IMG/VR virus record: IMGVR_UViG_3300029305_005724
Coordinates: 1 to 64,000 of that record
Strand: one strand, 5' to 3'
Origin: a virus
Lineage: Duplodnaviria; Caudoviricetes
Length of the DNA: 64,000 bases
Below the pieces are notes generated by a model, which was given only the letters and a program-made list of their open reading frames with translations, did no database searches and was not told where the DNA came from. A program made the position numbers and the translations under genes. Every line of letters begins with the position of its first letter. The stretch's first letter is position 1. This document shows, one piece after another, positions 18,984-60,680 of this stretch.

Positions 18984-20741
18984 GTGAGATTCTTGAACTT
19001 TGAACGAAGAGCCAAATACTCTGGTCAAGGATCTTCTGTTGTTAAATCTAATAAACAACTTGACATGAATCTTGATCTCAGAACCTTAGATATCATGTGT
19101 AAGTGTATTGTAAGCGATAATCAAACGATTAGACGTGGACAATTAGTAAACTTACGTAATCTGATATATTTGATAAAACCGGATAATTATATTAATGATT
19201 CGGAAAAATCAAAACGTATAGCTTTTATCAAAAAAGGCATAGAAGCTAGACTTCAATTTAATTTAACAGATCCATATATGATTATGTCTCATATAAACGG
19301 AGGCATAATTTCAGATGATGGAATCATAAATCTCGATGAATTTAAAGGACTTTCAAGTGCTGAAGTATCATGGATGAATAACATGGTTTCTGAAGCATTG
19401 AAGTACTCGCATGTATTTAATAATGTAGATATTCTTATGGACTTATGCTCAAGAATTCGTTCAGCTGATTATGGGTCCAAGGCCGAGATGGTTGCCGAAT
19501 TTGAGAAAGCCATCAACAATATTCAGAATGATTTTAGAAGGTCAAAGAATGAAAATCAAACTGAAGAAATGTTTAGTTTGCGTGATGGATACTTTGAAGA
19601 TATCATGTATGATACATATAATACTTTAAGCTCACCTAGACGTAAACTTGTAACTGGTATGCAAGGTATGAATGAACTTCTTGGTGGAGGATTTGAAAAT
19701 GGACGTTGTTATGTTTATTTTGGTCTTCCTGGAGAAGGTAAATCAACAATCATACTTAATATGATTTATCAGTTAAAGAAATATAATAAAGACTATAAAA
19801 CCAAAGATCCAACTAAAAGACCATGTGTTGTACTATTGACTATGGAAAATACTGTCACAGAGTCTGTAGAGAGATTGTTTGGAATGGCGACAAATAGAAA
19901 TACAATGACAGATCTTTCTCCTAAGGGAGCTATTGATATGCTTAGAGAAGAAGGTGAATTGTACTTGACTGATGAGTCGCCTATAGACTTGATTATAAAA
20001 TTCAAGCCATCAAACTCTGTCGATACAAGCTATTTGTATTCATTGACAGAAGATCTTGAGGATCAGGGTATGGAAGTTATTGCAATGTTTCAGGATTATA
20101 TTGGACGTATTCGTTCAACTGAAAGATTACAAGATACTCGTCTTGAATATGGAGCAATTGTAGATGAGTTTAAAACATTTGCAGAAATTAAAGATATTCC
20201 TGTAATTACAGTTGCTCAGCTTAATAGAGATGCATCGAAGCATATAGATGAAGGTAGAAAGGCTAGTAAGTCCGATCTTGTTAGATTGATTGGTCGTTCT
20301 AATATTAGTGAATCGATGCTTATCCTGAATAATATCGATGCCGGATTCCTGATTGCACCAGAAATTACTCAGAATGGGGAAAAGTTCCTTGGTGTACAAA
20401 GAATTAAGATAAGATATAATGCAGGAAATAGAGAGTTTGTATACTTACCATTTGCTTCAAATGCTTTAAAGCTTATGGAAGATTTTGGAGGAATTGCAAA
20501 CTTTAAAACTACAATGAGGCCTGAACAACCGTTTGGAAATATCGGAGGACTACCTCCTCAGTCTCAGTACCAGACTAATACGATTATGGATATGGGTCAA
20601 ATAATGAAATCTATTTCTAATGAATCAAATATTTTCTCTGCTAAAGTTATGAGTAGAGGAATTGAAGAATTAGAAGCAGATAAGAGTTATTCTGTGAACT
20701 TAATTGAGCCAATGATTTTCTATAATCGTAGTAGTTTATAA
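18984..20741 (+). CDS. dnaB: DnaB-family replicative helicase
   Basis: GLPGEGKS Walker A, LTMEN, DYIG, VAQLNR motifs. Confidence 0.9.
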   Translation: MRFLNFERRAKYSGQGSSVVKSNKQLDMNLDLRTLDIMCKCIVSDNQTIRRGQLVNLRNLIYLIKPDNYINDSEKSKRIAFIKKGIEARLQFNLTDPYMIMSHINGGIISDDGIINLDEFKGLSSAEVSWMNNMVSEALKYSHVFNNVDILMDLCSRIRSADYGSKAEMVAEFEKAINNIQNDFRRSKNENQTEEMFSLRDGYFEDIMYDTYNTLSSPRRKLVTGMQGMNELLGGGFENGRCYVYFGLPGEGKSTIILNMIYQLKKYNKDYKTKDPTKRPCVVLLTMENTVTESVERLFGMATNRNTMTDLSPKGAIDMLREEGELYLTDESPIDLIIKFKPSNSVDTSYLYSLTEDLEDQGMEVIAMFQDYIGRIRSTERLQDTRLEYGAIVDEFKTFAEIKDIPVITVAQLNRDASKHIDEGRKASKSDLVRLIGRSNISESMLILNNIDAGFLIAPEITQNGEKFLGVQRIKIRYNAGNREFVYLPFASNALKLMEDFGGIANFKTTMRPEQPFGNIGGLPPQSQYQTNTIMDMGQIMKSISNESNIFSAKVMSRGIEELEADKSYSVNLIEPMIFYNRSSL

Positions 20742-20837
20742 ATAGATAGGGATAGAGCTAGCAATAGCTCTATCCCGTTTATTTTAGGTATCTTGATGAA
20801 TCAAAATACCTGCAGACCTTTAAAAGGTTCTGTCCGT

Positions 20838-21254
20838 TTAATTATCCCATGTATCATTATATGATTCCATTGCTTCTCTTTCAGCATCATAAATATATCC
20901 CATGACAAGAGACATATATTCTTTAGAGAGCATCTTGATAACGGGTTTTGTAAATTCTTTCACATCGGCCATATCATTTAGAAGAAGAATTACATAATAA
21001 AGTTCTGGATTTCCATATACATCATAGCAAAGAAGTTTTGGCTTATAGAAATAGGCTTTTTGATCTTCTTCACTTAATTTTACAGAAACAGAAACATTGG
21101 ATAGCTCTTGGATATAGTCAGATACAGCATTCTTTATAGATACCCATGTTCCATTTTCCATCATATTTCTAAAAGACATATCAAAATAGGTTACATTTGT
21201 ATTTCTACCTGCATCGATAAAGTCTTCAATTGTTGTCGTATTTTGAGGTAGCAT
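20838..21254 (-). CDS. Baseplate wedge protein (T4 gp53-like LysM-type)
   Basis: YKPKLLCYDVYGNPELYYVILLLN motif. Confidence 0.65.
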   Translation of the reverse strand: MLPQNTTTIEDFIDAGRNTNVTYFDMSFRNMMENGTWVSIKNAVSDYIQELSNVSVSVKLSEEDQKAYFYKPKLLCYDVYGNPELYYVILLLNDMADVKEFTKPVIKMLSKEYMSLVMGYIYDAEREAMESYNDTWDN

Positions 21255-21403
21255 TGTATCAATCCTCCTTTAATTATTAATCTAATAATAACCATCTATT
21301 AAATGATTGTTCGAGGAATTAATTTGATTCTTTGAATTATTGTGGTTCTTGAGCCAGATAGAGCTCAAGAACTAAATTTTATTTTCGAAAGGAAATTATT
21401 ACT

Positions 21404-21907
21404 ATGAATGCAAAAGATAAGGAGATCAATCTCGCTATTATGAGAGAGATTGGCTTGGATATTGGACCCGATAATAGGGTTTATGATCAAGATAGCGGTA
21501 TGGCTATCCGCATTGATGGTGCTGATATTATGGCTCCTGGTGCAGCATATGGTCGTTCTACTGCAGAATTTGATCCTTTTAATAATAGAAAAATGATGAA
21601 CCAGCTCTTTGGATTCTTCCTAGAGAAGCATGCAGATGAGACTGGAGTTGATTGCAATAGCTTCTACTTAATTAATAAGAAAGCAGGGGCTGGACAAGTT
21701 GAATGTAAGTTTAGCGATTCAACAGTTTTAACTTCTGGGGTTTATGGCAGAGATAGTCTTAAGTATGCAGATATTATTATGCAGCTTAATGACAGCGAAG
21801 GAACTGTAGATCTCAGCGAGTATGATTATCCTCCTGAAAATACTGGCGTAAAAAGTAAAGGAGTGACTAAAAATGGCAGAAAAAAGAAAGTTTCCATTAA
21901 CAGATAA
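21404..21907 (+). CDS. Hypothetical protein
   Basis: ORF with RBS. Confidence 0.75.
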   Translation: MNAKDKEINLAIMREIGLDIGPDNRVYDQDSGMAIRIDGADIMAPGAAYGRSTAEFDPFNNRKMMNQLFGFFLEKHADETGVDCNSFYLINKKAGAGQVECKFSDSTVLTSGVYGRDSLKYADIIMQLNDSEGTVDLSEYDYPPENTGVKSKGVTKNGRKKKVSINR

Positions 21908-23090
21908 ACAGCAATTTATTGTAGATCAAGCTGTAAAGTGGTATCATAATTCATCTGAACAAGTATTTCAATTTGCTGGTAATCCTGGTACAGGAAAATC
22001 GGTCGTTATGGATGCTATTATAGATGCTATAGGTATTGATCGCGAGCGAGTTGCTCCCATGGCTTATGTGGGAGCAGCAGCGATTAATATGAGATTAAAA
22101 GGTCTTGAAAATGCTAAGACTATTCATTCTTGGATTTATGATATAGTAGAAAGACCAGTTTTTGATGGTACAGGTAAACCTGTTATAAATCCGTATTTCA
22201 ATAGACCTGAAGTGACATTCAAAAAGATTCCAAAAGAGCTTCCTGAGATAGATTTAATAGCTATTGATGAAGCAGGAACCGTTCCATATAGAATGCGAAA
22301 AGATATTCTATCTAGAGGTAAGAAAGTTTTGGTAGCTGGAGATCTGGATCAGCTTCCTCCTGTTGGAGATAATCCGGCATTTTTAGCTGATGGTCAAGTT
22401 TATGTGCTTGATGAAATTATGCGGCAGTACAAAGGTTCTGCCATAATCTATTTATGCCAAAGAGCAAAACTTGGGCTTCCCATACACACGGGAGTGTATG
22501 GGAATGAGGTCCTTGTTTTAGAAGAAAAAGATTTTGAACAAATTGCTCATAGAATACTTCCAGTTGCTGGAGTTGTACTGTGTGCAAAAAATGAAACACG
22601 AACTAAGTATACCGATTTTATTAGGTATCAAGTTCTTGGTAAAAAGAGTAAGATGCCAGACCAAGGTGAGAAACTAATTTGCAAGATTAATGACTGGAGA
22701 TTGTCTGCAGGCGGAATTAATCTCACAAATGGTTTAACTGGCCGCGTATTAAATAAACCCGATGTATCATCTTTTGATGGTAAGTGCTTTAAAATTGACT
22801 TTATGCCAGATTTGGGGCCAGAGCCATTTATAGATGTACCAGTAGATTATCAATTCTTTACTACTGACCCTGTAAAAAGAGCTGATATGAAGAATTTTAA
22901 TTATTGCTATGGAGAAGCTTTTGAATTTGGTTATGTTGAAACTGTGCATGTTGCACAGGGTTCTCAATGGAAAACTGGAGTTTATTTTGAAGAATTTATT
23001 CCTAGCAATACCCGTCAATTAAATTATACGGCTTTAAGCAGATTCTCCAATAAATGTATTTATGTGAAGAAGAATCGAAAGTATTATTAA
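21873..23090 (+). CDS. SF1 Dda/RecD-like DNA helicase
   Basis: GNPGTGKS, IDEAG, GDLDQLPPV, TVHVAQGSQW, YTALSR. Confidence 0.9.
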   Translation: MAEKRKFPLTDKQQFIVDQAVKWYHNSSEQVFQFAGNPGTGKSVVMDAIIDAIGIDRERVAPMAYVGAAAINMRLKGLENAKTIHSWIYDIVERPVFDGTGKPVINPYFNRPEVTFKKIPKELPEIDLIAIDEAGTVPYRMRKDILSRGKKVLVAGDLDQLPPVGDNPAFLADGQVYVLDEIMRQYKGSAIIYLCQRAKLGLPIHTGVYGNEVLVLEEKDFEQIAHRILPVAGVVLCAKNETRTKYTDFIRYQVLGKKSKMPDQGEKLICKINDWRLSAGGINLTNGLTGRVLNKPDVSSFDGKCFKIDFMPDLGPEPFIDVPVDYQFFTTDPVKRADMKNFNYCYGEAFEFGYVETVHVAQGSQWKTGVYFEEFIPSNTRQLNYTALSRFSNKCIYVKKNRKYY

Positions 23091-23102
23091 GGAGGTATAA
23101 TT

Positions 23103-23393: not shown

Positions 23394-23394
23394 A

Positions 23395-23991
23395 ATGCCT
23401 AATGAAAATAAATTGATAGAGCCAATGATTTTTGATGAGGATAGAAATAAACAATCAGAAATTATTGTGCCTAATAGAGATGGATTAATTAATCCAATGG
23501 AATTCGATGTTCGTACAAAGAGCGTCGAAGAAAAAATATATATTATTCTATACAAAGTAGATCATATTGATGAGATGGATCAGATGTATAGAAATATTTA
23601 CGATATTTGTCTTGGTCGTACTGATGCTTATAATACTATTAAAGAAAAACTTGTATCAGGAGTTCCGATAGATATTCATCGCACTAAAATTATTACTGAG
23701 ACAAAACAGACAGAGACAGATTCTGGAGACAGGAAGTATTATTTACTTCCATACAATGAGTGCATTAGTTTATATGCATTTCTTTTAAGCATTCAGGATT
23801 TCTATAGTGAAGATAATTTCGATATTGAGGATTATAATACTACAGGAGTTCCAGAAGATGCTAAAGATGACATAGAGGATAAGCCTAACTATCTTACTCC
23901 TGAGCAAGTAGAATATAGGAAGATGCTCGAAGCCTCAATGCATCGTGATAAATTTCTTAATACAATGAAGAATGAAGGGACCAATATTTGA
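23395..23991 (+). CDS. Hypothetical protein with two N-terminal LI(E/N)PM(I/E)F motifs
   Basis: ORF in operon. Confidence 0.75.
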   Translation: MPNENKLIEPMIFDEDRNKQSEIIVPNRDGLINPMEFDVRTKSVEEKIYIILYKVDHIDEMDQMYRNIYDICLGRTDAYNTIKEKLVSGVPIDIHRTKIITETKQTETDSGDRKYYLLPYNECISLYAFLLSIQDFYSEDNFDIEDYNTTGVPEDAKDDIEDKPNYLTPEQVEYRKMLEASMHRDKFLNTMKNEGTNI

Positions 23992-24076
23992 TTTCAAGCA
24001 TATATCATATAATTGAAATCAAAATGAATGGTTTTAAAACAAAAATAAAATACAATTAGAAAGGAAAATAAATGTT

Positions 24077-24581: not shown

Positions 24582-26003
24582 ATGACACTTGACCAGGTTA
24601 AATTGATTCGCGATGCCTTGATGCAGCCTGCTACAAGACCTGATGGCAGAAAATCGTGTATCGGCGAATATTTAAAAATTGTTATCGATGATCAGACAGA
24701 TTTGGTAACAAGTAAAGACTGCATTTTCTGGGATGATGATAATAAGATCATTACTGCTGTTTGCATTAATGATGATATGAAGTCCCAGGCTGATTTCCCC
24801 ATTAAAGTTATTACTGCAGAATATGACAAAATTAATATGATTGAATCTATTCTTAGTGCTGTTAACTTTAAGACATTTATGGATAATGGATTTATCAAAA
24901 CTAGCGAAGAAAAGAAGAAATTTGCTATTGAAAACTTCCTCGGAAGTATTACAAATCAGGCTCAGCAGCCTATGGATGCAGAACCTCATTGGAATACAAA
25001 TCCTAAGACAATTCCTATGCATACTAGCAGAATTAAGAGAGAAGCTGTTGTTATTTCTGGTGCACAAACGGTTAGAGAGGATGGAACAATTGCTAATTAT
25101 AATTCTGTAGCCGAAGCTCTTAATGATCTTCATAATGGAGACGTTCTTACTATTGGAGAGGACGTAGTTCTCGATGCTCCAATTAATGTAGAACCTGATG
25201 TTTCTGCAACTATTAATTTGAATAAGCATGATATTGAAAGTTCTAGTAGTGAACCTTTGTTTACTGTCAATGCAGGATCCAAGCTTGAAATTGTCGGTTC
25301 TGGTAAAATTAAATCTTCTGGAAAGACTATTTCGGCAATTGGTGATGATGAGAAGCCGGCAGAGGTTATTATTGGTACAGGGGTTGCTATAGTATCAACT
25401 GATAATGTGGCACTATTTGTACGTAATAATGTTGACGTTACTGTAAATGGTATCGTACAGACTGAAACTGGTGCATTCGCAGCAATTCAAGGCAATGGTC
25501 TTGATCAGAGCAATAAGCTTAATCTTACAATCGACGGTGGCATAGTAATTAATGAACTTGACTGTGCTATTTACTGGCCCAACTCCGGAAAGCTTACAAT
25601 TAAAGGCAATTCCCAGATTATAGGTAATACTGCTATTTATATTAAGGCAGGTGAGCTTATAGTAGAGGATGATGCTTTTATTAGCGGTATTGGACCTGCT
25701 TCAGAGTATAAGCATAGCGCTAATGGTTGCTATTGCACCGGTGATGCTATCGTTGCCGATTACTGTGTATATCCTGGAGGCGTTCCCAGTATTCATCTTC
25801 ATGGAGGTACGATTACATCTGATAATGCTCTTGCATTTGCAGCATATGATAAAGATGGCAATCTTTGGCCCGAATCCGCAGCAGATAAGATTATTATCTC
25901 TGGCGGTAGCTATAATACTGAGGTACACGAGGACTATATTCTCCAAGGTTATGGAGTTATCGTTCATGAAACGACTGGCCTCAATAAAGTTATTGCACTT
26001 TAA
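24582..26003 (+). CDS. Protein with C-terminal beta-helix (pectin-lyase-like) repeats
   Basis: YNSVAEAL...INLNKH, repeated L.I.GG.I / AI motifs. Confidence 0.6.
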   Translation: MTLDQVKLIRDALMQPATRPDGRKSCIGEYLKIVIDDQTDLVTSKDCIFWDDDNKIITAVCINDDMKSQADFPIKVITAEYDKINMIESILSAVNFKTFMDNGFIKTSEEKKKFAIENFLGSITNQAQQPMDAEPHWNTNPKTIPMHTSRIKREAVVISGAQTVREDGTIANYNSVAEALNDLHNGDVLTIGEDVVLDAPINVEPDVSATINLNKHDIESSSSEPLFTVNAGSKLEIVGSGKIKSSGKTISAIGDDEKPAEVIIGTGVAIVSTDNVALFVRNNVDVTVNGIVQTETGAFAAIQGNGLDQSNKLNLTIDGGIVINELDCAIYWPNSGKLTIKGNSQIIGNTAIYIKAGELIVEDDAFISGIGPASEYKHSANGCYCTGDAIVADYCVYPGGVPSIHLHGGTITSDNALAFAAYDKDGNLWPESAADKIIISGGSYNTEVHEDYILQGYGVIVHETTGLNKVIAL

Positions 26004-26249: not shown

Positions 26250-27065
26250 ATGTTCAGCAACTACAACAACCCCCAGCAGTTCGGCTACGCCTATAGCGTT
26301 CCGCGTCCCATGGCTAAGAATACTCAGCCGCTGACTCCTGAGCAGATTGCAAAGCTCAGAAATGACAGCGCTGCGTTCGACATGAAGGTTTCGCAGGAAG
26401 ATCTTTGGGCAGCTGTCTGCACACACAAGGAAAAGAACGGACAGAGCACGCTTATCGCAGTTGACGATCAGGGCACTATGGAGTGCACGATTTGTCATGA
26501 GCGTTTCAAGATGTGTGATGCAACTCGTGAGGAAGTTGATAAGGCAGTTCAGACTCTTATCGACATGCTTCAGACCAGTAAGACCATTTACCTCGATGCT
26601 CCTGAAGAGCTGGTTCGTCAGTACTATCAGATGATTCCGCTCCTCAAGAAGTTCGCAGGTCTTTGGGATCATGCAATCAAGAACTTCGCTAAGTATGAGG
26701 GCTACGTACCTACCGGCGTAAATCCGATGGCTCCTGGCTACTCGGGCTTCCAGGCAATGCAGACCCTTCTTAGCAATCCTTACGGCGGCATGTATGGCGC
26801 TCCTGCTTATCAGCAGCCTGCAGCTCCTGCATACGCTTATCCCGCTGCTCCTGCAGCACCCTATGGTTATCCTGCCGCACCTGTAGCTCCTGGCTACGAT
26901 GCTTACAATAATCCGATGGCTTACGGCGCTCCCGGAGCCGTTCCTTCCGCACCTGCAGCGGCACCTGCACCTGGTATGATTCCTGGCGCTCCCGCTGTAG
27001 CACCCGCAGCTGCTCCTGCTACTCAGCAGGGCGAGGTTCAGCAGCAGCAGGTTTTCAACGTATAA
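26250..27065 (+). CDS. Zinc-binding protein with Pro/Ala/Tyr-rich low-complexity C-terminus; codon bias suggests high expression
   Basis: CTH...CTIC; (Y/A)PAAPAAPYG repeats; GC-richer C-ending codons. Confidence 0.75.
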   Translation: MFSNYNNPQQFGYAYSVPRPMAKNTQPLTPEQIAKLRNDSAAFDMKVSQEDLWAAVCTHKEKNGQSTLIAVDDQGTMECTICHERFKMCDATREEVDKAVQTLIDMLQTSKTIYLDAPEELVRQYYQMIPLLKKFAGLWDHAIKNFAKYEGYVPTGVNPMAPGYSGFQAMQTLLSNPYGGMYGAPAYQQPAAPAYAYPAAPAAPYGYPAAPVAPGYDAYNNPMAYGAPGAVPSAPAAAPAPGMIPGAPAVAPAAAPATQQGEVQQQQVFNV

Positions 27066-44435: not shown

Positions 44436-46682
44436 ATGGCAAATTTTAATCAAGTTGAAGATATAAAAAATTTAAATATCGAAAAATCTGATTATATGCT
44501 TGGTAAAGGATTGATGATGCCTTTTAATCCTACCAACTCTGGAAGCCGTAAAATAATGTATGGCTCTCAGGCAGAACAGAGATTAGGTATAACAAAACCG
44601 GACGTTCCTTATGTAGGAACTGGATATGAATCATTATTTGGACAGAACTCTTCGTCTTTCAATAAAGTAGAAGAAGATCTGGAAGTAATTGGTTGTGTAG
44701 CAAAATTTGAATGGTGTCCTATGCATCATTATTTTGTATTTGCAATTAATAGAGATAATGGAGGACTTAGAGTATTTGAAAGAAAAGAATATAAGCATAT
44801 TACTGAGAATTATGGTTATCTTCTTAATAATGATATGCTTGATGCTCTTGTCCCTGGAAATATGATTCCGAAAGGAACCGTTATTCAGAAAAGCAATGCT
44901 TTTGATGAATATGATAATAGAATGGATGGTAAGAATCTTCTCACATTGTATTCTTCTTGTGAAGAAACAATGGAAGATGCTATTGTCATCTCTGAGTCAG
45001 CATCAAAGAAGCTTTCATCTCCATTAATTAAGAAAGTGAGTATTATTGTTAATGATAATGATATTCCTCTTAATCTTTATGGAGATATTGAAAATTATAA
45101 AGTCTTCCCGGATATTGGAGAAGAAAGTGTAAATAGTATTTTATGTGGTTTCCGCAGAGAGAAGAAAGAGGAAGCACTGTTCTCACAATCATATGCAAGA
45201 CTTAGAGAGCTTTCGATCTCTGATGAAAAATACACAGTTGCTGGAAGAGTTGTAGATGTAGACGTATATTGCAACGCTCCTGAAAAGCTTGGAGAATACG
45301 AATACAATACGCAGTTTAAGAAATATTATGATAATAATTTAAGAATGGCTAATCAAATTATAGACATTCTTGATCCTTATATTGCAGAAGGTTGCGAAAT
45401 GGAGTATGATCTTCAAGTTCTATACTATAACTGCAAAGGAATACTTTCTGGAAAGCATTATTTCTCTGAAAGAGAGTTTTCGAATATTGTTATTAATGTA
45501 ACTTTAATTGAAGAAATTCCTGTATTAAGAGGTGATAAGCTTTCTAACCGTTATGGCGGTAAAGGTATTACAGCTAGAGTAAAGCCAGATGAATTAATGC
45601 CTAAAACATTAAGTGGAGAAACTGTTGATATTATTTTGAATATGTGTGGCGTTTATGGACGTGAAAATGCTGGACAGCTTTTTGAAATTACCGTCACATA
45701 TATTTGCATGAAAATAATTGAATTCATCAATCTTCAGGTTTTGGACATTGATCAGTGTATTGAGCTTTATTTAAATCTTCTTCGTATTGTATCACCTTCT
45801 ATGGCTGATTATACAGAAGAACAGTTCACTAAAATGACTGATGATGAATGCATAGCTTATATGGCAGGAATTTGTGCTACAGAAAAATGTATGTATCTTG
45901 CAATTGAGCCTATGAGTGAAGCAATGACACTTGATAAGGTCGAACAGCTTTATCAAGAATTTCCTTGGGCAAAAGCTGAACATATGCTGATGCCTATTAC
46001 AGATTCTGCTGGAGAGATTAAATATATTCCCTCTAGAAGGCCCTTAATTTATGGATACCAATATATCTATAGATTGAAGCAGTATGCAGAGGAGAAGTTT
46101 TCTGTAACTTCATTGTCTGCTACAAATATTCGTAATGAAAATAGTAAGAGCAAGAGTAGCAACAACTATAGAGCTCTATATTCTAGAACACCGATTCGTT
46201 TTGGCGATATGGAAACTGGAAACCTTATACACCTTGGAGCTGAACTTGTTGTTCAAATGCTTATGCTATATTCAACATCTCCTCATGCAAGACGTCTTGC
46301 TCAAGAGATGCTTACTGGCGATGCATTCAATATCGATGTTAAACTGGATGAGGAATCTAAGAATAGAAATGTTGAAATACTAAATGTTTATCTTAAAACA
46401 ATGGGATTAAAATTAGTATTCAGCAGAAAACCTAAACAGTACGAACAACCGATGTTGATTGAACCGATGTACTTCTATGATAATCCTCATAGACTTGTTG
46501 AAGGACTCATTCCGTTAAATAAAGATGAGAAATTTGATATGGAAGCTGAAGTTCTCAGACTTATTAAGGAAAAGAATCATGAACAATGGGCTATGGATAT
46601 CTATCCTATGGAGTTTACAAGAGAGCCTGGAGCTTATGAGAAAGAACTTGCTGCCAAAGAAGCAGCCAAGAAATCTGAATAA
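44436..46682 (+). CDS. Multisubunit RNA polymerase beta subunit, C-terminal part (probably non-virion RNAP)
   Basis: EDAIVIS, GDKLSNRYGGKG, DIILN..GV..REN.GQ, RFGDME. Confidence 0.9.
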   Translation: MANFNQVEDIKNLNIEKSDYMLGKGLMMPFNPTNSGSRKIMYGSQAEQRLGITKPDVPYVGTGYESLFGQNSSSFNKVEEDLEVIGCVAKFEWCPMHHYFVFAINRDNGGLRVFERKEYKHITENYGYLLNNDMLDALVPGNMIPKGTVIQKSNAFDEYDNRMDGKNLLTLYSSCEETMEDAIVISESASKKLSSPLIKKVSIIVNDNDIPLNLYGDIENYKVFPDIGEESVNSILCGFRREKKEEALFSQSYARLRELSISDEKYTVAGRVVDVDVYCNAPEKLGEYEYNTQFKKYYDNNLRMANQIIDILDPYIAEGCEMEYDLQVLYYNCKGILSGKHYFSEREFSNIVINVTLIEEIPVLRGDKLSNRYGGKGITARVKPDELMPKTLSGETVDIILNMCGVYGRENAGQLFEITVTYICMKIIEFINLQVLDIDQCIELYLNLLRIVSPSMADYTEEQFTKMTDDECIAYMAGICATEKCMYLAIEPMSEAMTLDKVEQLYQEFPWAKAEHMLMPITDSAGEIKYIPSRRPLIYGYQYIYRLKQYAEEKFSVTSLSATNIRNENSKSKSSNNYRALYSRTPIRFGDMETGNLIHLGAELVVQMLMLYSTSPHARRLAQEMLTGDAFNIDVKLDEESKNRNVEILNVYLKTMGLKLVFSRKPKQYEQPMLIEPMYFYDNPHRLVEGLIPLNKDEKFDMEAEVLRLIKEKNHEQWAMDIYPMEFTREPGAYEKELAAKEAAKKSE

Positions 46683-46791
46683 TAATGCTCAAAGCAATAA
46701 AGGCATAGTCATATTTGACTATGCCTTTATTTTTTATATTCTTTCTTAGTTATATAATATAATCTTGATAAAAAGAAAGGAGATAATTATT

Positions 46792-49086
46792 ATGTATGAA
46801 ATATTAAACAAAATACTGTCTAGACTATTGTCTGGAGATTTATCTGTATTAAATTCTGAAAATGTTATCATGGTAGCTGATCAGGCTATTGATTTGTTAA
46901 ACAAACCCGTTTGGGATGAGCATGATAAAATGTGTGCTAGTATTATTATTAGCATGAGTCAAATTGTTTATAACAATACTGATTGTTCTGTATTGTTTCT
47001 AGATGATGGAATCTATGATTTACTTCTAGAAAAATACAAAGAATATGATAAAAATTTCATGGTAGGCGCCCCAATAGTGCAATTTAATCAGCAAGGGGAA
47101 GCCGTTGTTGAAAAAGAGTTTATAGAGCCGATGGTTTTTGTTGAAAATCCTGATATTTTTGAGCAAAACTCATTTTATTTTGATGATATTAATAAAAGAC
47201 CTCCGCTGGATATAAACCTTATTAAAGACATTGATAGAAATTCTGGAAAAGTAATTTCTAAGAAAAATGTTAAGGTTCCTCATATGTACCCAAAGCTTGT
47301 AGGCTCTCTTGATAAGTGTAAATTTACACTTAATTGTGAAGCTATAGATAGAGGTGCATTTGAAGATGACAATGTTAAAGTCTTCGAAAGAGACTTTTTA
47401 GCAAAGCATTTGCAAATGGGTCTTATAGATATGACTACTCCATTTGAGCTTGTTGCAGAGCTTAAATACGATGGTGTATCTGTAGAGGCAGATGTCACAA
47501 ATAAAATTCTAAGTGCAAGATCTCGTGGAGACGTAAATGAAGATATAGCAGCGGATATGACAGAAATATTTGGCGGATATCAATTTCCTTATGCTCCTGA
47601 GATTCCTGAAACGGAAGCATTTGGAATGAAATTTGAAGCAATAATTAGCTATATTAACCTCGATAAGCTTGGAAGATTAAAGGGTAAATACTATAAAAAC
47701 AGCAGAAATGGTATTATTGGTCTTTTGGGATCTTCCGATGCTTATGACTATAGAGATTTAATTACACTTATTCCATTAGCAACTTCTATGGAAGATATCG
47801 ATAGAGTTACAGAAATAGAATTCTTAAATAAGTATTATCATTCTGGAGAATATCTAAGATATTCAGTGCTTAAAGGAAACTATACAAGTATTCTTTATCA
47901 AGTAAGAAAATTCGTAGAAGAAGCTGAAACTATGAGAAATATGCTTCCGTTTATGTATGATGGAGTAGTTATTTCTTATAGAGATCCTAAAATAATCAAG
48001 GCACTTGGTAGAGAAAATTCTATAAATAAATATAGTATGGCTATCAAGTTCAATCCTCTTGTTCGAGAAGCTGTATTCACAGGATATACTTACAGCATAG
48101 GACAAGATGGAACAGTAACCCCAATGATCCATTACACCCCAGTAGAATTTTATGGAACAATTCATACAAAATCTAGTGGTCATTCTTATAAAAGATTTAT
48201 AGATTTACAGCTTGCTATTGGGGATATAATTCAGGTAGAATACACGAATGACGTTATGCCATACGTGACAAAACCTGAAATTATGGCCAATTATAGAAAT
48301 GCGAATGAGCCAGAGTTATTTCCCGAGTTCTGTCCTTATTGTGGAACAGCACTTATTGTTAATGAGTCTGGTAAATCTGCAATTTGTCCTAATAAGCAAT
48401 GCCCGGAAAGAGTTATTGCTAAAATGGCAAATATGATGTCTAAGCTCAATCTCAAAGATTTTGGAGAGGAGACATTTAGATTTCTTGGGACTAAGAGCTT
48501 GAGTCAACTTCTTAATTACACTTATGAAGATATTAAAGAACTTGGTCCAGCTACTGCTGAAAAACTTCTTGAAAGAATAAATGAAGTTAAAACGACTCCA
48601 TTATATGATTATAAAATTATGGGATCTATCGGATTTACAGGAATAGCTGTAGAAACGTGGAAGAAGATTCTTAATGTAATTCCTTTAGTAGAAGTGGCAA
48701 CAGATTCAGATGAAGATCTTTATCTAAAGCTTAAATCTATTAAAGGAATTGGAGAAGTAACAGCAAAAATTATTGTTCATGAGAGGCATGATTTGGAGAG
48801 TGATATATCGGAAATTTTAAGACTACCTAGTTTAATGATTTCTTTTGGAGTTAAATCTGGAAAGATGATTAGATACACTGGTTGTCGTCCGACTGATGAA
48901 CTTACAAATTATTTAACCTCTAAAGGTTGTGATGCTAGAGCTGATGCAGGAGTTACAAAAGCTACAGATGTGCTTGTAGTTCCTTATAACGGATTCTCTA
49001 GTTCCAAAACATCAAAAGTTGGAGATAATACTATAATTGTGGATTATGCCGCTTTTAGTGCAGATCCTGATAAGTATATCTCTTGA
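46792..49086 (+). CDS. ligA: NAD-dependent DNA ligase
   Basis: ELKYDG, SRGD, DGVV, AIKF, CPYC...CPN..C, BRCT-like C-terminus. Confidence 0.9.
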   Translation: MYEILNKILSRLLSGDLSVLNSENVIMVADQAIDLLNKPVWDEHDKMCASIIISMSQIVYNNTDCSVLFLDDGIYDLLLEKYKEYDKNFMVGAPIVQFNQQGEAVVEKEFIEPMVFVENPDIFEQNSFYFDDINKRPPLDINLIKDIDRNSGKVISKKNVKVPHMYPKLVGSLDKCKFTLNCEAIDRGAFEDDNVKVFERDFLAKHLQMGLIDMTTPFELVAELKYDGVSVEADVTNKILSARSRGDVNEDIAADMTEIFGGYQFPYAPEIPETEAFGMKFEAIISYINLDKLGRLKGKYYKNSRNGIIGLLGSSDAYDYRDLITLIPLATSMEDIDRVTEIEFLNKYYHSGEYLRYSVLKGNYTSILYQVRKFVEEAETMRNMLPFMYDGVVISYRDPKIIKALGRENSINKYSMAIKFNPLVREAVFTGYTYSIGQDGTVTPMIHYTPVEFYGTIHTKSSGHSYKRFIDLQLAIGDIIQVEYTNDVMPYVTKPEIMANYRNANEPELFPEFCPYCGTALIVNESGKSAICPNKQCPERVIAKMANMMSKLNLKDFGEETFRFLGTKSLSQLLNYTYEDIKELGPATAEKLLERINEVKTTPLYDYKIMGSIGFTGIAVETWKKILNVIPLVEVATDSDEDLYLKLKSIKGIGEVTAKIIVHERHDLESDISEILRLPSLMISFGVKSGKMIRYTGCRPTDELTNYLTSKGCDARADAGVTKATDVLVVPYNGFSSSKTSKVGDNTIIVDYAAFSADPDKYIS

Positions 49087-50623: not shown

Positions 50624-52402
50624 ATGCTTACTCAGAGAGAACTTGTTGCAAACTTTATCCGAGATAAGAGAGAGCCGTTTAATCCTCTCTTTTTCAAACG
50701 GGATGAAGATGAAATTGTTACTGAATTGATGAATGTTATTTATTCTTGTGAACGTGAGAATCAATACTTCACAATTAAAGTTGATTCGTATCGAGTCGTA
50801 GATAACTATGAAGAGATTAATAATATCCTTTATCATTATTACGAAGATCTTACGAAAAATAAATCAAAATCAAAGAAAAGGGACAATCAATATGCATTCA
50901 TAAATCTTAATGAATCCTGTATCAGACTTTTGATTGTTCGCTATTATATAAAAGATAGGAATGAAGAAGACTATCTCGACGTTCTTATCGCAATTCCAAG
51001 AGTTATTGATAAGTACTATTTCAAAATAAATGGAATTATGCGTTCCACATTATTTCAGATTGTTGATGGTAGTACCTATAACAATGGAACTTCAAATGCG
51101 AAAGTCCCTAGTATTACGCTAAAGATTATATTCATGGCAGTACGTGTTAGCAGATACTATAATACATTAAAGACAACAGAAGGTGAAGAGCTTAGAATGA
51201 CTTATTACCATTCTAGAATCTTTAATAAAGGTATTGCTGCTGCTAAATATATCTTTGCTAAATTCGGGTATTATGGAGGTCTAAATTTCCTTGGTCTTGA
51301 GGGATCTATCTATCTTACTAGAGAAGACCCGCATGATTCAGATATGTACACCTTCAAAGTGCATGAAAATGCATATATAAGCAGTCCTAAGTTTCTTGTA
51401 GATAGAAATGTAATGCTGCAATCTGTAATTGTAACCCTTTATAATAGTATTATTGAAGGAATTCCTTTTGAAACTCTATTTGATAATCTTTATTGGGTTA
51501 GAAATCTCGGTGCTGAATTTAGTGGTGGTGATGAACGACTTGTATCAGTATATGATGAAGAAGATGATACCACCCCTGATACTTTAGACAAAGGATATAG
51601 CATTCTTGACTCGTTTGAGTCCATTTATGATATCAGTACAAAACGTTCTATCAAACTTCCTGAAGAGGATAAAGAAACAACGTATCATGTACTAAGATGG
51701 ATTATGAGAGAATTTAATGCTCTTCGTCTTAAAGATAACCTTGATATTAGATGCAAAAAGATTCGTTTTGCTGAGTATATTGCATCTCTTTATGCATTTA
51801 AGATTGCAAGAGGTATTTATCGTGTTTCTGATATGAATAAGAAAGCTAGTATTCTTAGCATTCGTAAAGCTATTAGAACCGACCCTAATTATCTTCTTGT
51901 GGCAATTACCAAATCCAAAATGGTATCATATAGAAACATGGTTTCTGATCTTGATGCTATGCAGGCTCTTAAGTACACTTACAAAGGTGTATCTGGCCTT
52001 GGAGAAAATTCAAATAATTCTATTCCTGATATCTATCGTTCTATCCATCCTAGTCATATTGGTCGTGTAGATCTTGATGCATCTAGCGATGGAAATCCTG
52101 GTATTACAGGAACTCTTTGCCCCTATGCTCCAGTGTATGATGGATTCTTTGAAGACTATCATGAACCAAATGCATGGGCATCAGAGTTTATGGAAACTAT
52201 GGAAGAATATAAGAAAGCTCAAAATCTTAAAGATGCTTTGATCTTTGAAGAGAGAATTTTGGGTAAAGATAAGACGGAAGAGATAGAAGTGACGTCTGAA
52301 ATCATTGCCTCGATGCAACAAATTATTAAACCAATGATTTTTGCAGATCAAGGCGAAGAAATCAGTATGGAGGACGTGCTCTATGGCTCAAACAAAAATT
52401 AA
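50624..52402 (+). CDS. Multisubunit RNA polymerase beta subunit, N-terminal part
   Basis: YFKING...FQ; RSIHPSHIGRVDLDASSDGNPG resembles beta RDVHPSHYGRIC..ETPEG.NIG. Confidence 0.8.
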   Translation: MLTQRELVANFIRDKREPFNPLFFKRDEDEIVTELMNVIYSCERENQYFTIKVDSYRVVDNYEEINNILYHYYEDLTKNKSKSKKRDNQYAFINLNESCIRLLIVRYYIKDRNEEDYLDVLIAIPRVIDKYYFKINGIMRSTLFQIVDGSTYNNGTSNAKVPSITLKIIFMAVRVSRYYNTLKTTEGEELRMTYYHSRIFNKGIAAAKYIFAKFGYYGGLNFLGLEGSIYLTREDPHDSDMYTFKVHENAYISSPKFLVDRNVMLQSVIVTLYNSIIEGIPFETLFDNLYWVRNLGAEFSGGDERLVSVYDEEDDTTPDTLDKGYSILDSFESIYDISTKRSIKLPEEDKETTYHVLRWIMREFNALRLKDNLDIRCKKIRFAEYIASLYAFKIARGIYRVSDMNKKASILSIRKAIRTDPNYLLVAITKSKMVSYRNMVSDLDAMQALKYTYKGVSGLGENSNNSIPDIYRSIHPSHIGRVDLDASSDGNPGITGTLCPYAPVYDGFFEDYHEPNAWASEFMETMEEYKKAQNLKDALIFEERILGKDKTEEIEVTSEIIASMQQIIKPMIFADQGEEISMEDVLYGSNKN

Positions 52403-52618: not shown

Positions 52619-52960
52619 ATGCAGATTAAAGAACCGCTGATAGAACCAATGATTTATCACGGTCCAGGTGGCTGCCCAAAGTGCAGCGGACCAATTACTG
52701 TAGCTGATAGCGAACTTACTATCATGGACTTAAACCAAGATGGTGATCCTATTAGTTCAGAAACGACAATCCGCTGCATGGGTTGCTGCATGCACTGTGG
52801 CAACAAAATTCCTATGATGAGATTTAAAGGTTCCTATATTCCATATAGTGAATCTTCGAAAATCATCAGAACCATGGAATTCAAAGATGAAATGGCTCAG
52901 CGAATAGCTGAAATCAATAAAAATTCTAATGGCAAAAATCCATTTGCCATAGAATCGTAG
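52619..52960 (+). CDS. Zinc-ribbon protein with LIEPMIY motif
   Basis: CPKC...CMHC. Confidence 0.75.
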   Translation: MQIKEPLIEPMIYHGPGGCPKCSGPITVADSELTIMDLNQDGDPISSETTIRCMGCCMHCGNKIPMMRFKGSYIPYSESSKIIRTMEFKDEMAQRIAEINKNSNGKNPFAIES

Positions 52961-52969: not shown

Positions 52970-53605
52970 ATGTTAAATATTTATGGGAAGTTAAAATTCC
53001 ATTACGACAACTTGTTAACACGTCCTGCACCACCTCAGAATACTTTTGATAGCATTAGAACTGTATATGAAGAAGCTTTTGATATTAAAATTCCGAGGTA
53101 TGACGTTTATAGATCCAAAATAGAAGTTGACAACTGTCCAATATCGGACATTGTTACTTTAGTTGGGCCTAAAGAAAAAGATACAAGAAAACTTCCAAGT
53201 GGTGTCATTACTTGCCACAATTCAATTGTATATGTCGATATAATTGATGAAAGATTTCTTGATATTGGCTCTAATGAAGAAGCAGATGAATATATTAAGC
53301 ATGTTTATAACGTGATTAATGAAATAATCTCTTATGATCATATGAGCATGAGTGTAACAAAGGCAGCAAAAAATCCGCATGGAATGCTGTTAAAAATGTT
53401 ACCATTTTATTATACTTTGCATCATGCATGCTCGATTTTTCCAGCTTATGTTAATGAGGAGTTGTTTATAGAAATTCTTCTAAATAATAAGCTAGTCAAA
53501 TCTAAAAATGAAGCCGAAACGGTTATCAATCAGGTCGTTATGAATGCATTTTCTGATATTCCGCCTATTATATATTCGCTTATCAGAATGCATATGAGTG
53601 AGTGA
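52970..53605 (+). CDS. Hypothetical protein
   Basis: GGAGG RBS. Confidence 0.7.
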   Translation: MLNIYGKLKFHYDNLLTRPAPPQNTFDSIRTVYEEAFDIKIPRYDVYRSKIEVDNCPISDIVTLVGPKEKDTRKLPSGVITCHNSIVYVDIIDERFLDIGSNEEADEYIKHVYNVINEIISYDHMSMSVTKAAKNPHGMLLKMLPFYYTLHHACSIFPAYVNEELFIEILLNNKLVKSKNEAETVINQVVMNAFSDIPPIIYSLIRMHMSE

Positions 53606-53610
53606 TAATT

Positions 53611-53943
53611 ATGGCATTCTCATTTGAACAAGAACCGCGCTCAAATCCGGAAGGGCTTATTGATCCTTTTATAATTACCGAGCGTTATGATATCTGCCCT
53701 AAATGCAGAGCTCAAAGAGTCGAACTTTATAGCTTCAATAATATACCTCAAAATTATAGCGATGCTGTTAATGCATATCTTAGAGGATATGAGGTAAATT
53801 ATAATAAATACGAAATTCATATGATGAAATGTAAATCATGTAATCATGAATTTGTAATAGATTGGACTATGGGGTTTCCAGTTCCATTGAAAAATAGCTA
53901 TAGAACAAATAGATTCTTTTCTGAATTTGTACGAGGGTACTAA
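53611..53943 (+). CDS. Zinc-ribbon protein with LIDPFII motif
   Basis: CPKC...CKSC. Confidence 0.75.
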   Translation: MAFSFEQEPRSNPEGLIDPFIITERYDICPKCRAQRVELYSFNNIPQNYSDAVNAYLRGYEVNYNKYEIHMMKCKSCNHEFVIDWTMGFPVPLKNSYRTNRFFSEFVRGY

Positions 53944-56781: not shown

Positions 56782-56848
56782 ATATTAAAGGCATGGATAT
56801 ACTCCATGCCTTTATTTTTTTTACTTATGACAATTATAACAAAATATT

Positions 56849-57255
56849 AATCAGGCTTGCGTATTGGAGTTCGCCGTGGGCGCGCAGTTGGGTTCTTTTT
56901 CATTTTGTTTCCTTTCGGGTGAAAGTTTTCCATATATACCTCTGAAGTGTTTTTACGTTTTTGCCATGCGTTGAAACTCCATTTTTTATATATCCTTTGT
57001 GAAATTTTTGCAAATCATAAAAAACTCCGTTTTTTAATATTTCTCCATACGCATTCTTTTTATCAGCCTGATTACTTACTAAGATAATAGGTCATCTGAG
57101 TCTGTCGATCTTCCTAGTCTTAGTTTGTATAATCCAAAGATCGCCAGGACGCAGCGAACCTTCAATTTTCCATTTGATTGGGGGAGGGGCGTCAATATAT
57201 CATACAAAAAATGGATACAGCAGCATCTAAGAATAGATGCTGCTGTACGCTTTTA
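56849..57255 (+). ncRNA. Candidate multi-module antisense RNA against translation-initiation regions
   Basis: Promoter motif 56838-56849; long-range closing stem; five or more CAT + anti-SD modules; terminator 57216-57255. Confidence 0.6.
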
Positions 57256-58227
57256 ATATTCATTAATCGGAACATTTCCACCTTCCATAACAAGAGGCCA
57301 AACTTGATTGATATTTCTATTTCTGGCAATACCAGCATGAATATCAATAGTAGTATCTTCAAGTAGGAATGCATCAGGCCTCGGATAGTTAGGAATGCTT
57401 GCCCCAGTACTTCTATCAATTACATCGAAATATCTTTGACCCGTGGCCTGGTTGTATTTAACAACAACCTGTATATTAGGATTCGATTCCATCCTCATTC
57501 TATTTTGTTCAGGGGTAAGTGCGGAACCACCTCCAATATTACTAGCAATCATTTCGACAGGAGCCACTCCAGGATTCTGTGAATTTACTCCGATAGTAAT
57601 ATCCTGAATAGAAGGAACGGCAGGGGTATAACTTCCAACAGGAGTGTTGACAAACGATGAATACATATCCATAATACGCATATCATCATTTTCATTTTGC
57701 TTATCAAGTTTAAGAGCTTTCATTCTATTAAGCTCAAGATTATGAGCCTGAGTAATTGTAGAATTAAGCTCTTTAATAGCAGAGATCTTTGTAGTAATAA
57801 GAGAGCTTGCTGATGCTGTAAGATTAGTAAGATACGTGAATTTATTCTTTAGTGTTTTACTAGAACGAACAGAATCAATATCCTGCTTAATTTCTGCATT
57901 AAGTTCATCTGCCTGAGCAATTGCTCCACGAATAAGAGCATTTGTTTCAGCATAAGATTTAGCATAATCAACTTCAACAACAGAAGTTGGTCCTTGAGGA
58001 GCTGGCTCGGAATCAACTCTTCCATCTATATTGAGTTTGGCTTTAACACGAGGATTAGACTTCTTTTTGTCATCTCCAGGCTTATTTCCTGAATCGATTT
58101 TTGAAGCATCATCACTATAGAAGAATCCGAAATCGACTCCTATTCCAGAGTCTTCTTTGTTTGCTGTCGTGTTGGTATCATTCATGATAAAGGGATCAAT
58201 TAATTGTCTCATTTTACTTTCCTCCAT
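57253..58227 (-). CDS. Conserved-type jumbo-phage hypothetical protein with LIDPFIM motif
   Basis: 324-aa ORF with coiled-coil middle. Confidence 0.75.
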   Translation of the reverse strand: MEESKMRQLIDPFIMNDTNTTANKEDSGIGVDFGFFYSDDASKIDSGNKPGDDKKKSNPRVKAKLNIDGRVDSEPAPQGPTSVVEVDYAKSYAETNALIRGAIAQADELNAEIKQDIDSVRSSKTLKNKFTYLTNLTASASSLITTKISAIKELNSTITQAHNLELNRMKALKLDKQNENDDMRIMDMYSSFVNTPVGSYTPAVPSIQDITIGVNSQNPGVAPVEMIASNIGGGSALTPEQNRMRMESNPNIQVVVKYNQATGQRYFDVIDRSTGASIPNYPRPDAFLLEDTTIDIHAGIARNRNINQVWPLVMEGGNVPINEY

Positions 58228-58465
58228 TACTTTGATTTATTAAATGTGCATAGCATATAAACCCAGTAGCATATGCTTATTGGTAAAAATCCTATATTAG
58301 CAACTATAGCAAAAACCAAGATCCTAGCAAATTAGTACTTCCTTCTTCATATATTATTATAGGATTCAATACTTCACTTGCAGTTACATGCTGTGTTACA
58401 AGAATCCAAAAGAATGAAGTTAGTATATAAAATGCTATTGTAAAAGAAATAAAAACTTCAGCCAT
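58227..58465 (-). pseudogene. Small membrane protein, frameshifted at a T5 run
   Basis: MAEVF...LLGSWF continues as FAIVANIGFLPISICYWVYMLCTFNKSK* if one T is added at 58311-58315; that stop overlaps the next ATG (TAATG). Confidence 0.6.
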
Positions 58466-58533
58466 CTTTTTCCTCCATTTTATATTTATCAAAATGTTCT
58501 AGTAATAAATAATAACGAGATAAACATAAAAAT

Positions 58534-58650
58534 AAATGCACTGATTTGCTCAAAGGGCATTTATATTTTCCTTTTATTTTTGTATGTACTAAGAATGGTA
58601 ACTCCTAAAGACGAGGCATGTACTCTTGTAGTACATGCCTTTGTTTTTTC
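58534..58650 (+). ncRNA. Candidate small antisense RNA
   Basis: AACA-N6-TA 58523-58534, anti-AUG/anti-SD module, terminator aggcatgtact..agtacatgcct + T-run. Confidence 0.45.
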
Positions 58651-58727
58651 TCAAATAAAAGGATAAGTGTATATTATAATAGTGCCAAAAACAAAATATT
58701 AATTAAAAAGAATAGGAGGGCAATCCT

Positions 58728-60680
58728 ATGATTAAAGGACGACAACCTGGAGATAATATTACCTTAATGAATACAATGTTCTTTAGGAGAATGGATCCAA
58801 AAGATGAGAAGTTTAAAGAATTCTTAGCTCTTATCTATAAGGATGCTGATACCGGAATAAAGTATATTGAGGAAAAAGTAGATCCTGATTATGAATATTA
58901 TATGATTAATCCTGATAAAAGGGTTGATTATAATAGATTATTTGTTTCGGCTGATGATGTAGAAGCCGTTCAAGTTCCTTATAAAGAACTTGAAAAAGAT
59001 ATTGCAAAACGTGTTGGTTGCCTTGATTATTTTTATGAAAATATTAAAAATGGTAACCGTACAGAAAATAGAAAAATACATCAGCACCCGGATGTATTTA
59101 ATAGTGATATGAATATTGAAGATCACTATAGATTTAGATTCGATAAAATGTATAAAAATGATACAGTTCCGATTACTAAATCTTTCTTCGATATTGAGGT
59201 TGATTCCATTAATATGGTAGGCGATTTCCCAGAGCCTGGAGAATGCCCAGTTAATGCCATCACATTAATACTGCAAGAACAGCAGCAGGTCTATACGTTC
59301 TTGCTTAGAAATAAGGCCAATCCTTTAATTGCAGAATTTGAAAATTCTGTATTAGACGGATCCATCTTTCCCGAACTTGAAGCATTTGTAGTAAATGCTG
59401 TAGGCGGACCGGAGATGGCTGCGAAATATAATATTAATTTCAAATATAACTTTCTTTTTTATGATGAAGACGATGAAATTAATCTCATCAAGGACTTATT
59501 TAATGCCTTAAACAATTTTAAACCAGACTTTGTATTGGCATGGAATATGGGATTCGACGTTCCATACCTTATTGCAAGATGCCAAAAGCTCGGATATGCT
59601 CCTGAAGATATTATGTGTCATCCTGATTTTAAGAATAAAATTGCACAATATTTTGTAGATGAAAGAATGAAAAGTGAATTCGCAGAACGTGGAGACTTTG
59701 CTTTAATCTCATCATATTCCGTATTCCTAGATCAGATGATACAATTCGCTTCTAGACGTAAAGGACAAAGTAGATTTATCTCATTTACACTTGACTTTAT
59801 TGGTGAAGCCGTAGCTAAAGTACGAAAACTTGATTATAAGCATATTACTACAAACATTGCTGAGCTTCCGTATAAAGATTATAAAACATTCGTGTTCTAT
59901 AATATTATCGATACCATTGTTCAGCATTGCATTGAATGTATGACTGGTGATATTGATTATGTATTTGGAAAGTCTCTTCTTAATAATACCAGATATTCTA
60001 AAACTCATAGACAAACTGTCTATTTGACAAATAGAGGTTGTAAAGAATTTAGAAAAGAAGGATTTATAATTGGAAACAATGTCAATAAGTTTAATCCGCC
60101 ACCGACCGAAAAATTCCCAGGTGCTTATGTAGCGGATCCTACTAAATTGGATAATACAAGTAGGCTTACTATATTTGGAAGATTCGTAGATCTGTTTAAT
60201 AATCTAGATGACTTCGACTATGCAAGCCTTTATCCATCTATTCTTCGTCAGTTTAATATAGCAGCTCACACCCAAATTGGAAAGCTCCTGTTGCCCAATA
60301 AGGTTCATGATAAAGAGAATCCTGCGAATAGAGATGACTGGAGTAGAGCTGGAGCATTTATGGAAGATATGCAGTCTCAGGTTTGGCTAGAGGTCGCTTC
60401 TAGATGGTTTAGCCTAGCAGACTATACTAAACTATATTTTGAAGTTATAGAGTTCTTTAGAGAAATGGCTGTAGCTTTAAATGGAGTTCAGAAGTATACT
60501 AAAGATGGATTAATCATTCCAATGATTGATGTAATTGATATAACGAAAAATAGACTATACGAGCCTATGATATTTAATGATAGTCGTAGAGTTATTGATG
60601 AGCGCTATGTAGCGTATGATATTCAAAGATGGGAGGCATGGAGAAATGCTGCAATTACAAATCCAAACCAGCACTACTAA
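58728..60680 (+). CDS. Family B DNA polymerase, N-terminal part (exonuclease + motif A) of a split enzyme
   Basis: FDIEVD, AWNMGFD, YNIID, FPGAYV, DFDYASLYPSI; no KxxxNSxYG or YGDTDS motif. Confidence 0.85.
   Translation: MIKGRQPGDNITLMNTMFFRRMDPKDEKFKEFLALIYKDADTGIKYIEEKVDPDYEYYMINPDKRVDYNRLFVSADDVEAVQVPYKELEKDIAKRVGCLDYFYENIKNGNRTENRKIHQHPDVFNSDMNIEDHYRFRFDKMYKNDTVPITKSFFDIEVDSINMVGDFPEPGECPVNAITLILQEQQQVYTFLLRNKANPLIAEFENSVLDGSIFPELEAFVVNAVGGPEMAAKYNINFKYNFLFYDEDDEINLIKDLFNALNNFKPDFVLAWNMGFDVPYLIARCQKLGYAPEDIMCHPDFKNKIAQYFVDERMKSEFAERGDFALISSYSVFLDQMIQFASRRKGQSRFISFTLDFIGEAVAKVRKLDYKHITTNIAELPYKDYKTFVFYNIIDTIVQHCIECMTGDIDYVFGKSLLNNTRYSKTHRQTVYLTNRGCKEFRKEGFIIGNNVNKFNPPPTEKFPGAYVADPTKLDNTSRLTIFGRFVDLFNNLDDFDYASLYPSILRQFNIAAHTQIGKLLLPNKVHDKENPANRDDWSRAGAFMEDMQSQVWLEVASRWFSLADYTKLYFEVIEFFREMAVALNGVQKYTKDGLIIPMIDVIDITKNRLYEPMIFNDSRRVIDERYVAYDIQRWEAWRNAAITNPNQHY

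Follow-up and report, generated by a model that had tools for sequence, protein, structure and literature searches.

The clamp-binding motifs of cells, the PIP-box and the bacterial beta-clamp motif, are stable across whole domains of life. In phages T4 and RB69, the gp45 clamp is bound by the tails of gp43, gp33, and gp55 and by a ligase peptide, and the three T4 tails are interchangeable (PMC2988020). Import in chimalliviruses does not proceed by terminal signals (PMC13282480, a review). Here we describe a seven-residue peptide, consensus L-I-E-P-M-I-F (the tag), that sits in loose tails or insertions of about 20 unrelated replication and transcription proteins of a jumbo phage. The stretch analyzed (the window) comprises positions 1 to 64,000 of the virus record IMGVR_UViG_3300029305_005724, which is 223,865 bp long and about 90% complete. 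A sequence-only reading of the window had pointed out the shared motif; the main feature that we add is a genome-wide rewriting of the tag in each lineage.

The record turns up in animal fecal and bovine gut metagenomes, and its nearest cultured relatives by RNA polymerase (RNAP) are PBS1 and AR9, which infect Bacillus and share about 33% identity with it; the source is an uncultured AR9/PBS1-like jumbo phage from the animal gut. We compared the genome holding the window (G000) with ten related genomes, eight of which are about 90% complete or better (G002 and the fragmentary G001 are incomplete), with AR9 serving as the annotation reference. No RNA holder is listed for the window.

A shared peptide under selection

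All 11 sites listed by the sequence-only reading are present, in frame and on the coding strand (Table 1). A profile trained on window sites only was run on called genes outside the window, where it returned 7 sites of at least 15 bits, our threshold, whereas 100 shuffles averaged 0.12 such sites and never gave more than 2; a six-frame scan added two sites in genes missed by the caller (genome 109262 and 199896). Unsupervised word counting over the proteome ranked LI.PM.F first, with 7 proteins against 0.02 expected, so that the suspected enrichment is borne out. Synonymous codons within the G000 tags match at 0.39, compared with 0.45 predicted from genome codon usage, and tag codon identity in five relatives is close to expectation. 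Because tag codons are no more alike than usage predicts, the tag is not a DNA repeat, and selection acts on the peptide.

The motif is also conserved in orthologs. Among DnaB homologs of 75 to 100% identity, 97 of 120 carry the strict pattern within their last 60 residues, where it forms an island, sometimes doubled, amid flanks that vary in length and sequence; orthologs in other lineages carry their own peptide at the same positions. Almost every strong site is found no more than about 70 residues from one end of its protein. The case for a shared docking or targeting peptide is strong.

Table 1. Tag sites and associated genes. Positions within 64 kb refer to the window; those beyond are genome coordinates of the same record. 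Proteins are named in the text by gene start.
Feature	Gene	Tag or feature position (strand)	Remarks
DnaB helicase, C-terminal tail	18984-20741	20700..20720 (+)	
198-aa protein of unassigned function, N-terminal tag 1	23395-23991	23413..23433 (+)	
Same protein, tag 2	23395-23991	23485..23505 (+)	
Non-virion RNAP beta-C, C-terminal extension	44436-46682	46455..46475 (+)	AR9 g089 ortholog
Same beta-C tail, further weaker copy	44436-46682	46596..46616 (+)	Conserved in G001 and G005; missed by the sequence-only reading
NAD-dependent ligase	46765-49086	47119..47139 (+)	Inside an insertion absent from the AR9 ligase (alignment)
Non-virion RNAP beta-N, C-terminal extension	50624-52402	52322..52342 (+)	AR9 g105 ortholog
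Zinc-ribbon protein, N terminus	52619-52960	52637..52657 (+)	3/5 genomes
Zinc-ribbon protein, N terminus	53602-53943	53656..53676 (+)	Weaker variant; orthologs tagged in other genomes
324-aa coiled-coil and beta-domain protein, N terminus	57253-58227	58183..58203 (-)	Weaker variant; protein conserved
DNA polymerase exonuclease half, C-terminal tail tag 1	58728-60680	60510..60530 (+)	AR9 g132 ortholog; degenerate, with a canonical copy at the matching position in G001
Same tail, tag 2	58728-60680	60555..60575 (+)	
Sliding-clamp-fold protein, 265 aa		60646..61443 (+)	Overlaps polymerase stop; untagged; best candidate receptor (modeled fold)
Zinc-site and helical protein		26250..27065 (+)	Prion-like Y/Q/G/P tail; conserved; untagged; rival scaffold candidate
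Non-virion RNAP beta'-C		genome 78278	
SF2 helicase		genome 86051	
AR9 g161 homolog		genome 87677	
59-aa protein	109142-109321 (L003:5292-5468)	genome 109262	Short helical part plus tag, little else; in 8/10 relatives
273-aa protein		genome 110616	
Intron HNH endonuclease		genome 199896	
Sigma-like non-virion RNAP subunit		genome 209155	
Helix-turn-helix protein		genome 215284	
Weaker tag sites		genome 84284 and 219125	
SSB-like protein (by eye)	102974-103798 (L002:19074-19895)		Conserved, beta-rich; G/S/N linker; acidic C-terminal tail; untagged
Conserved protein	116698-117846 (L003:12848-13993)		Prion-like Y/Q/N/G/P region, as in the 26250 protein; just upstream of the kinase-like gene
Protein-kinase-like gene (by eye, conserved residues)	117861-119315 (L003:14011-15462)		In 10/10 relatives; none detected in AR9; two conserved genes of unassigned function come next

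Lineage-specific rewriting and the client set

The two closest relatives of G000 carry the same peptide, whereas other relatives have a different one at matching positions of the same orthologs: L-I-D-P-L in G002, K-P-F-T-I in G009, N-P-F-I-H in G010, L-F-H-K-I in G011, P-M-V-T-F in G007, and I-x-V-V-x-R in G017. These motifs were learned by an unsupervised search on protein tails, without typed seeds, and the lineage peptides are recovered at 7 to 20 bits per region in leave-one-out scoring, against 5 for AR9. Under each lineage profile, tails from the profile's own genome scored far higher than tails belonging to the other peptide groups; since the own-genome diagonal includes training sites, the real test lies in held-out clients, which carried their own genome's peptide in 8/8 genomes for ligase, 5/8 for SbcD, 5/7 for the 53602 zinc ribbon, and 4/9 for the 113799 gene product, against a foreign rate of 0 to 0.15. 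No tag of this kind was found in AR9 by word counting or tail search, and the tails of LPJP1 and PALS_2, as read, are without the extensions.

These results bear on the view that the motif is a chance pattern or a DNA-level repeat without protein function. In its favor, a site at genome 82918, in the catalytic half of the polymerase, lies in a conserved segment that mostly ignores the lineage peptide; we set this site aside as a probable structural look-alike. The held-out enrichment, the background level of codon identity, conservation amid variable flanks, and the prediction of held-out clients in other genomes already refute that view, and we give it practically no weight.

Inspection by eye of 141 polymerase loci revealed many more such peptides, usually two or three in tandem, with arrays of 2 to 5 copies occurring, and the polymerase-tail peptide is often echoed at the start of the neighboring 57253 ortholog. 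In a few lineages (the L192, L196, L202 group), the polymerase tail is without an obvious tag while the clamp gene described below is kept, so that these lineages could serve as natural controls. Intron HNH genes often start with the local peptide (in G000 and G010, more weakly in G001, G005, and G011), though several do not. One HNH gene of G017 (46257-47069) starts with a G010-type peptide and not with G017's own; it is possibly a recent arrival.

Client status was scored over 8 to 9 genomes with a foreign-peptide hit rate of 0 to 0.15. The own-genome peptide marks the sigma-like subunit of the non-virion RNAP (9/9), ligase (8/8), the exonuclease half of the DNA polymerase (8/9), DnaB (7/8), the beta-C and beta-N subunits (7/8 each), and the beta'-C subunit and SF2 helicase (7/9 each); four of the five non-virion RNAP subunits are tagged, beta'-N being the exception. 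SbcD is tagged in most relatives, in 6/6 genomes the family of the 198-residue 23395 protein bears the local peptide, and 57253 orthologs begin with it; further clients are small zinc-ribbon and helix-turn-helix proteins, intron-borne HNH endonucleases, and several proteins of unassigned function. The 59-residue tagged protein could be a competitor or adaptor of the tag reader. Two labels of the sequence-only reading are corrected: both RNAP subunits named there belong to the non-virion enzyme, and the 58728 gene encodes one half of a split family B polymerase, the half with the exonuclease. Own-peptide tags were found in none of 8 genomes for RecA, RecD, and GyrB and in none of 9 for SbcC and RNase H; primase, the SSB-like protein, virion RNAP, and GroEL are untagged or nearly so. 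Portal, sheath, capsid, and terminase were likewise untagged (0/9), in keeping with the earlier remark that the motif avoids structural proteins.

This partition bears directly on an import role, in which the tag would admit proteins to a sealed nucleus-like compartment with a non-chimallin shell, as a linear counterpart of PicA-dependent import. Such a role would suit the tagging of the non-virion but not the virion RNAP and the adoption of the local peptide by homing endonucleases, and lineage-private passwords would serve selective import well. RecA, RecD, gyrase, RNase H, SbcC, and primase are untagged, however, though RecA and RNase are imported in chimalliviruses (PMC13282480). A chimallin search (PF25677) gave no candidate in G000 while detecting the phiKZ positive control, and phrog_4795 had none in 4 genomes, a negative that could still be explained by a shell protein of very divergent sequence or by a gene lying in the 10% of G000 that is missing; the PicA/Imp1 profile phrog_3141, searched without a positive control, had no match in 4 genomes. 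The docking half of the earlier proposal is well supported, the peptide being enriched, conserved, and placed in tails and insertions, while its phage-nucleus option is weakened by the lack of chimallin and by RecA, RecD, gyrase, and RNase H being untagged, since these stand-alone DNA enzymes should require import as well; we regard import as very improbable.

A clamp-fold protein beside the polymerase

Clustering exposed a BLAST-invisible family encoded directly downstream of the polymerase gene, and leave-one-out profiles unite 11 syntenic proteins in it (E of 5e-7 or better). Judging from its homologs, mostly about 266 residues long, the gene most likely starts at 60646 rather than at 60682. 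The AF2 monomer model (pLDDT, 93; pTM, 0.89) clearly adopts the two-domain DNA-clamp fold of PCNA and gp45. Foldseek matched it to PCNA (E about 1e-4), and T4 gp45 was the best structural match in VIA (Z, 9.2; rmsd, 4.1; 188 aligned), where the top 38 rows are all clamps or clamp-derived factors, with PCNA, gp45, beta, and herpesvirus processivity factors matched; BFVD matches include chimallivirus RNase H proteins. This open reading frame had been among three hub candidates named from the sequence, and the modeled sliding-clamp fold strengthens its case. For the other two, 26250 and 49237 (first listed as 49282), no informative PDB match was found. The Pfam PCNA search and a PDB sequence search both missed the clamp protein, and its profile had no match in AR9, phiKZ, LPJP1, PALS_2, or G004. 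AR9 g129 (L043:8726-9442), a 238-residue hypothetical protein encoded two genes downstream from the exonuclease half of the AR9 polymerase, holds the matching position; it is possibly a clamp homolog, but HHalign did not link it to the family and sequence comparison gave no confirmation.

The clamp gene is present in 138 of the 141 related loci and lies within 200 nt of a tagged polymerase tail in 129; one rearranged complete genome that we checked keeps it elsewhere (E of 3e-14). The protein evolves very rapidly: clamp identity is 17 to 33% between lineages with differing peptides, against 38 to 53% for the SF2 helicase, and the median is 18% for the clamp versus 48% for the polymerase core. 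The best-kept positions across 68 dereplicated clamps are mostly lysines, glycines, and one aspartate, with Lys27, 30, 183, 213, and 239-241 kept in 69 to 90% of them. As far as alignment can tell, this pattern would suit a protein whose DNA face stays constant while its peptide face varies.

Another conceivable reader is a modifying or quality-control enzyme (the kinase-like 117861 protein, phage GroEL at 104550, or a protease adaptor) or a host factor. Hydrophobic strand motifs are typical enzyme docking sites, and the kinase-like gene occurs in all tagged genomes and was not detected in AR9. The kinase-like protein and GroEL, though, retain 40 to 58% and 35 to 61% identity to G000, too much for readers of such different peptides; a host factor would not easily yield so many distinct peptides, and the clients are specifically DNA-acting. 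We consider enzyme or host docking quite improbable.

On balance, and with slightly better than even confidence, we favor the tag as a clamp-docking peptide that co-drifts with its clamp. We hypothesize that it was added, often as 2 to 5 tandem copies, to flexible tails and loop insertions of proteins acting on new phage DNA, and that its likeliest reader is the clamp-fold protein. The latter would probably bind DNA through its conserved lysines, probably as a UL42- or Rhc-like non-ring processivity factor, and would hold the tag as an extended strand on its variable outer face, much as client peptides are held by PCNA and gp45. Replication, repair, and middle and late transcription would be gathered on clamp-bearing phage DNA, with the logic of T4 gp45 extended to the phage's own RNAP, and joint drift of tag and receptor would give each lineage a private peptide. 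Polymerase and ligase, both tagged, are together with late-transcription factors the classic clamp clients.

Several results weigh against clamp docking. RNase H is a T4 clamp client and is untagged here, whereas DnaB, four subunits of one RNAP, and HNH endonucleases would be unusual clients. A partial Mantel test over 32 lineages gave no clamp signal of coevolution beyond phylogeny (r, 0.05; p, 0.18), with a crude and noisy tag measure that ranked the self match first in only 7 of 56 lineages. A scan by Walker A pattern only, over 11 genomes (G000 being about 90% complete), revealed no conserved unassigned AAA+ protein as a clamp loader, in keeping with a non-ring factor such as phiKZ Rhc or the herpes simplex virus UL42 (10.64898/2026.09.30.755723). 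The homologous clamp domain of phiKZ Rhc contacts its polymerase over 1,800 square angstroms of folded surface rather than by way of a peptide (10.64898/2026.09.30.755723). A complex prediction for the clamp and the DnaB tail (residues 546-585) scored 0.00 with a poorly folded partner and was not used as evidence in either direction. Finally, the prion-like 116698 and 26250 families of the tagged genomes are alternative receptor candidates.

These two families underlie the proposal that the tag brings its clients together in a viral factory that has no shell, a condensate, with the folded part of the 26250 or 116698 protein, the tagged 57253 protein, or the kinase-like operon as reader. One or the other of the two families has the top prion-like score in all 11 tagged proteomes, and together they take the top two places in most; the 116698 family is present in 11/11 tagged genomes and the 26250 family in 10/11 (the fragmentary G001 is without that region), and AR9 is without both. 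Tandem tags and the tagging of several subunits of one complex suggest avidity, the local peptide occurs on intron HNH genes as though it were required for reaching phage DNA, and six relatives encode a tubulin-like protein. Against this, no peptide-binding fold was recognized in the candidate scaffold proteins, G000 itself is without tubulin, and RecA, gyrase, and the SSB-like protein are untagged. We think a condensate unlikely, while noting that it can coexist with the clamp model. The tubulin/FtsZ-family gene lies near RecA in those six relatives (including G009, 213358-214572; G011, 86356-87519; and G016, 100031-101188) and was not found in G000, G001, G002, G005, or G013, of which G001 and G002 are incomplete. 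The 26250 protein ends in a short hydrophobic tail with Phe usually third from the end. The 57253 model had no structural match, and a further candidate, 24582-26003 (473 aa), was dropped when its ESM Atlas model matched beta-helix proteins (TM about 0.55).

Returning to clamp docking, a broader and more doubtful proposal is that in this clade a peptide private to each lineage acts as a password that organizes replication and transcription, and that some 20 genes are rewritten in step with changes in the reader. The local peptide would then be needed for access to phage DNA, whether clamp-coated or condensed, and mobile endonucleases would have to acquire it.

Significance and comparison with known systems

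The tag provides a genome-readable list of proteins sent to one hub in a large uncultured jumbo-phage clade, places several genes of unassigned function in DNA metabolism, and points to a candidate for the missing clamp-like factor of the AR9-related clade. Should the clamp prove to be the reader, a single receptor changing along with some 20 client peptides would amount to a natural experiment that clamp motifs elsewhere do not show. With many natural peptide/clamp pairs, specificity is testable with synthetic peptides and small proteins, without cultured phage; cognate-specific binding would yield a set of orthogonal docking modules, and password reading, if true, would keep co-infecting relatives and host proteins apart with no need for a nuclear shell. 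We found no description of the tag in the literature searched, most subscription journals lying outside its coverage.

As in the Chimalliviridae, with their nucleus and PicA/Imp1, non-virion and virion RNAPs are split here and homing endonucleases are among the tagged proteins. Unlike in that family, neither chimallin nor, in a search without a positive control, PicA was detected, and several DNA enzymes are untagged; chimallivirus import, moreover, uses surface features rather than terminal peptides (PMC13282480).

The chimallivirus Rhc (RNase H-clamp; phiKZ gp155, Goslar gp190) offers a closer parallel, being clamp-derived and, as the protein here may be, loader-less, with a split family B polymerase and two multisubunit RNAPs. 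It differs in that the putative clamp here is a stand-alone gene beside the polymerase and the RNase H domain is not fused; the match between the G000 RNase H gene and the Rhc profile phrog_3265 is limited to the N-terminal part of the latter (positions 85-187). Rhc binds the polymerase by a folded surface, and term searches of the main findings of two preprints returned no shared client peptide.

With the PCNA PIP-box, the bacterial beta-clamp motif, and the UL42/UL44/BMRF1 factors, this system shares the tool-belt arrangement in which a single linear motif recurs in the disordered segments of unrelated enzymes, and the modeled candidate receptor matches PCNA, beta, and herpesvirus UL42-type folds. 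The tag has the placement of clamp motifs, in flexible tails and loops common to the polymerase and other DNA enzymes, while the learned profiles match no PIP-box, beta-clamp, or T4-type tail consensus. Unlike the PIP-box and beta-clamp motif, it differs between phages whose core enzymes are still 45 to 55% identical.

The gp45 system of T4 and RB69 likewise equips the flexible tails or loops of polymerase, ligase, and late-transcription machinery with a short hydrophobic peptide. Here the peptide sequence differs, no RFC-type loader is evident from the Walker A scan, and the roughly 20 clients extend to DnaB, four subunits of the phage's own RNAP, and HNH endonucleases, with tandem copies and a wholesale change of peptide between related phages.

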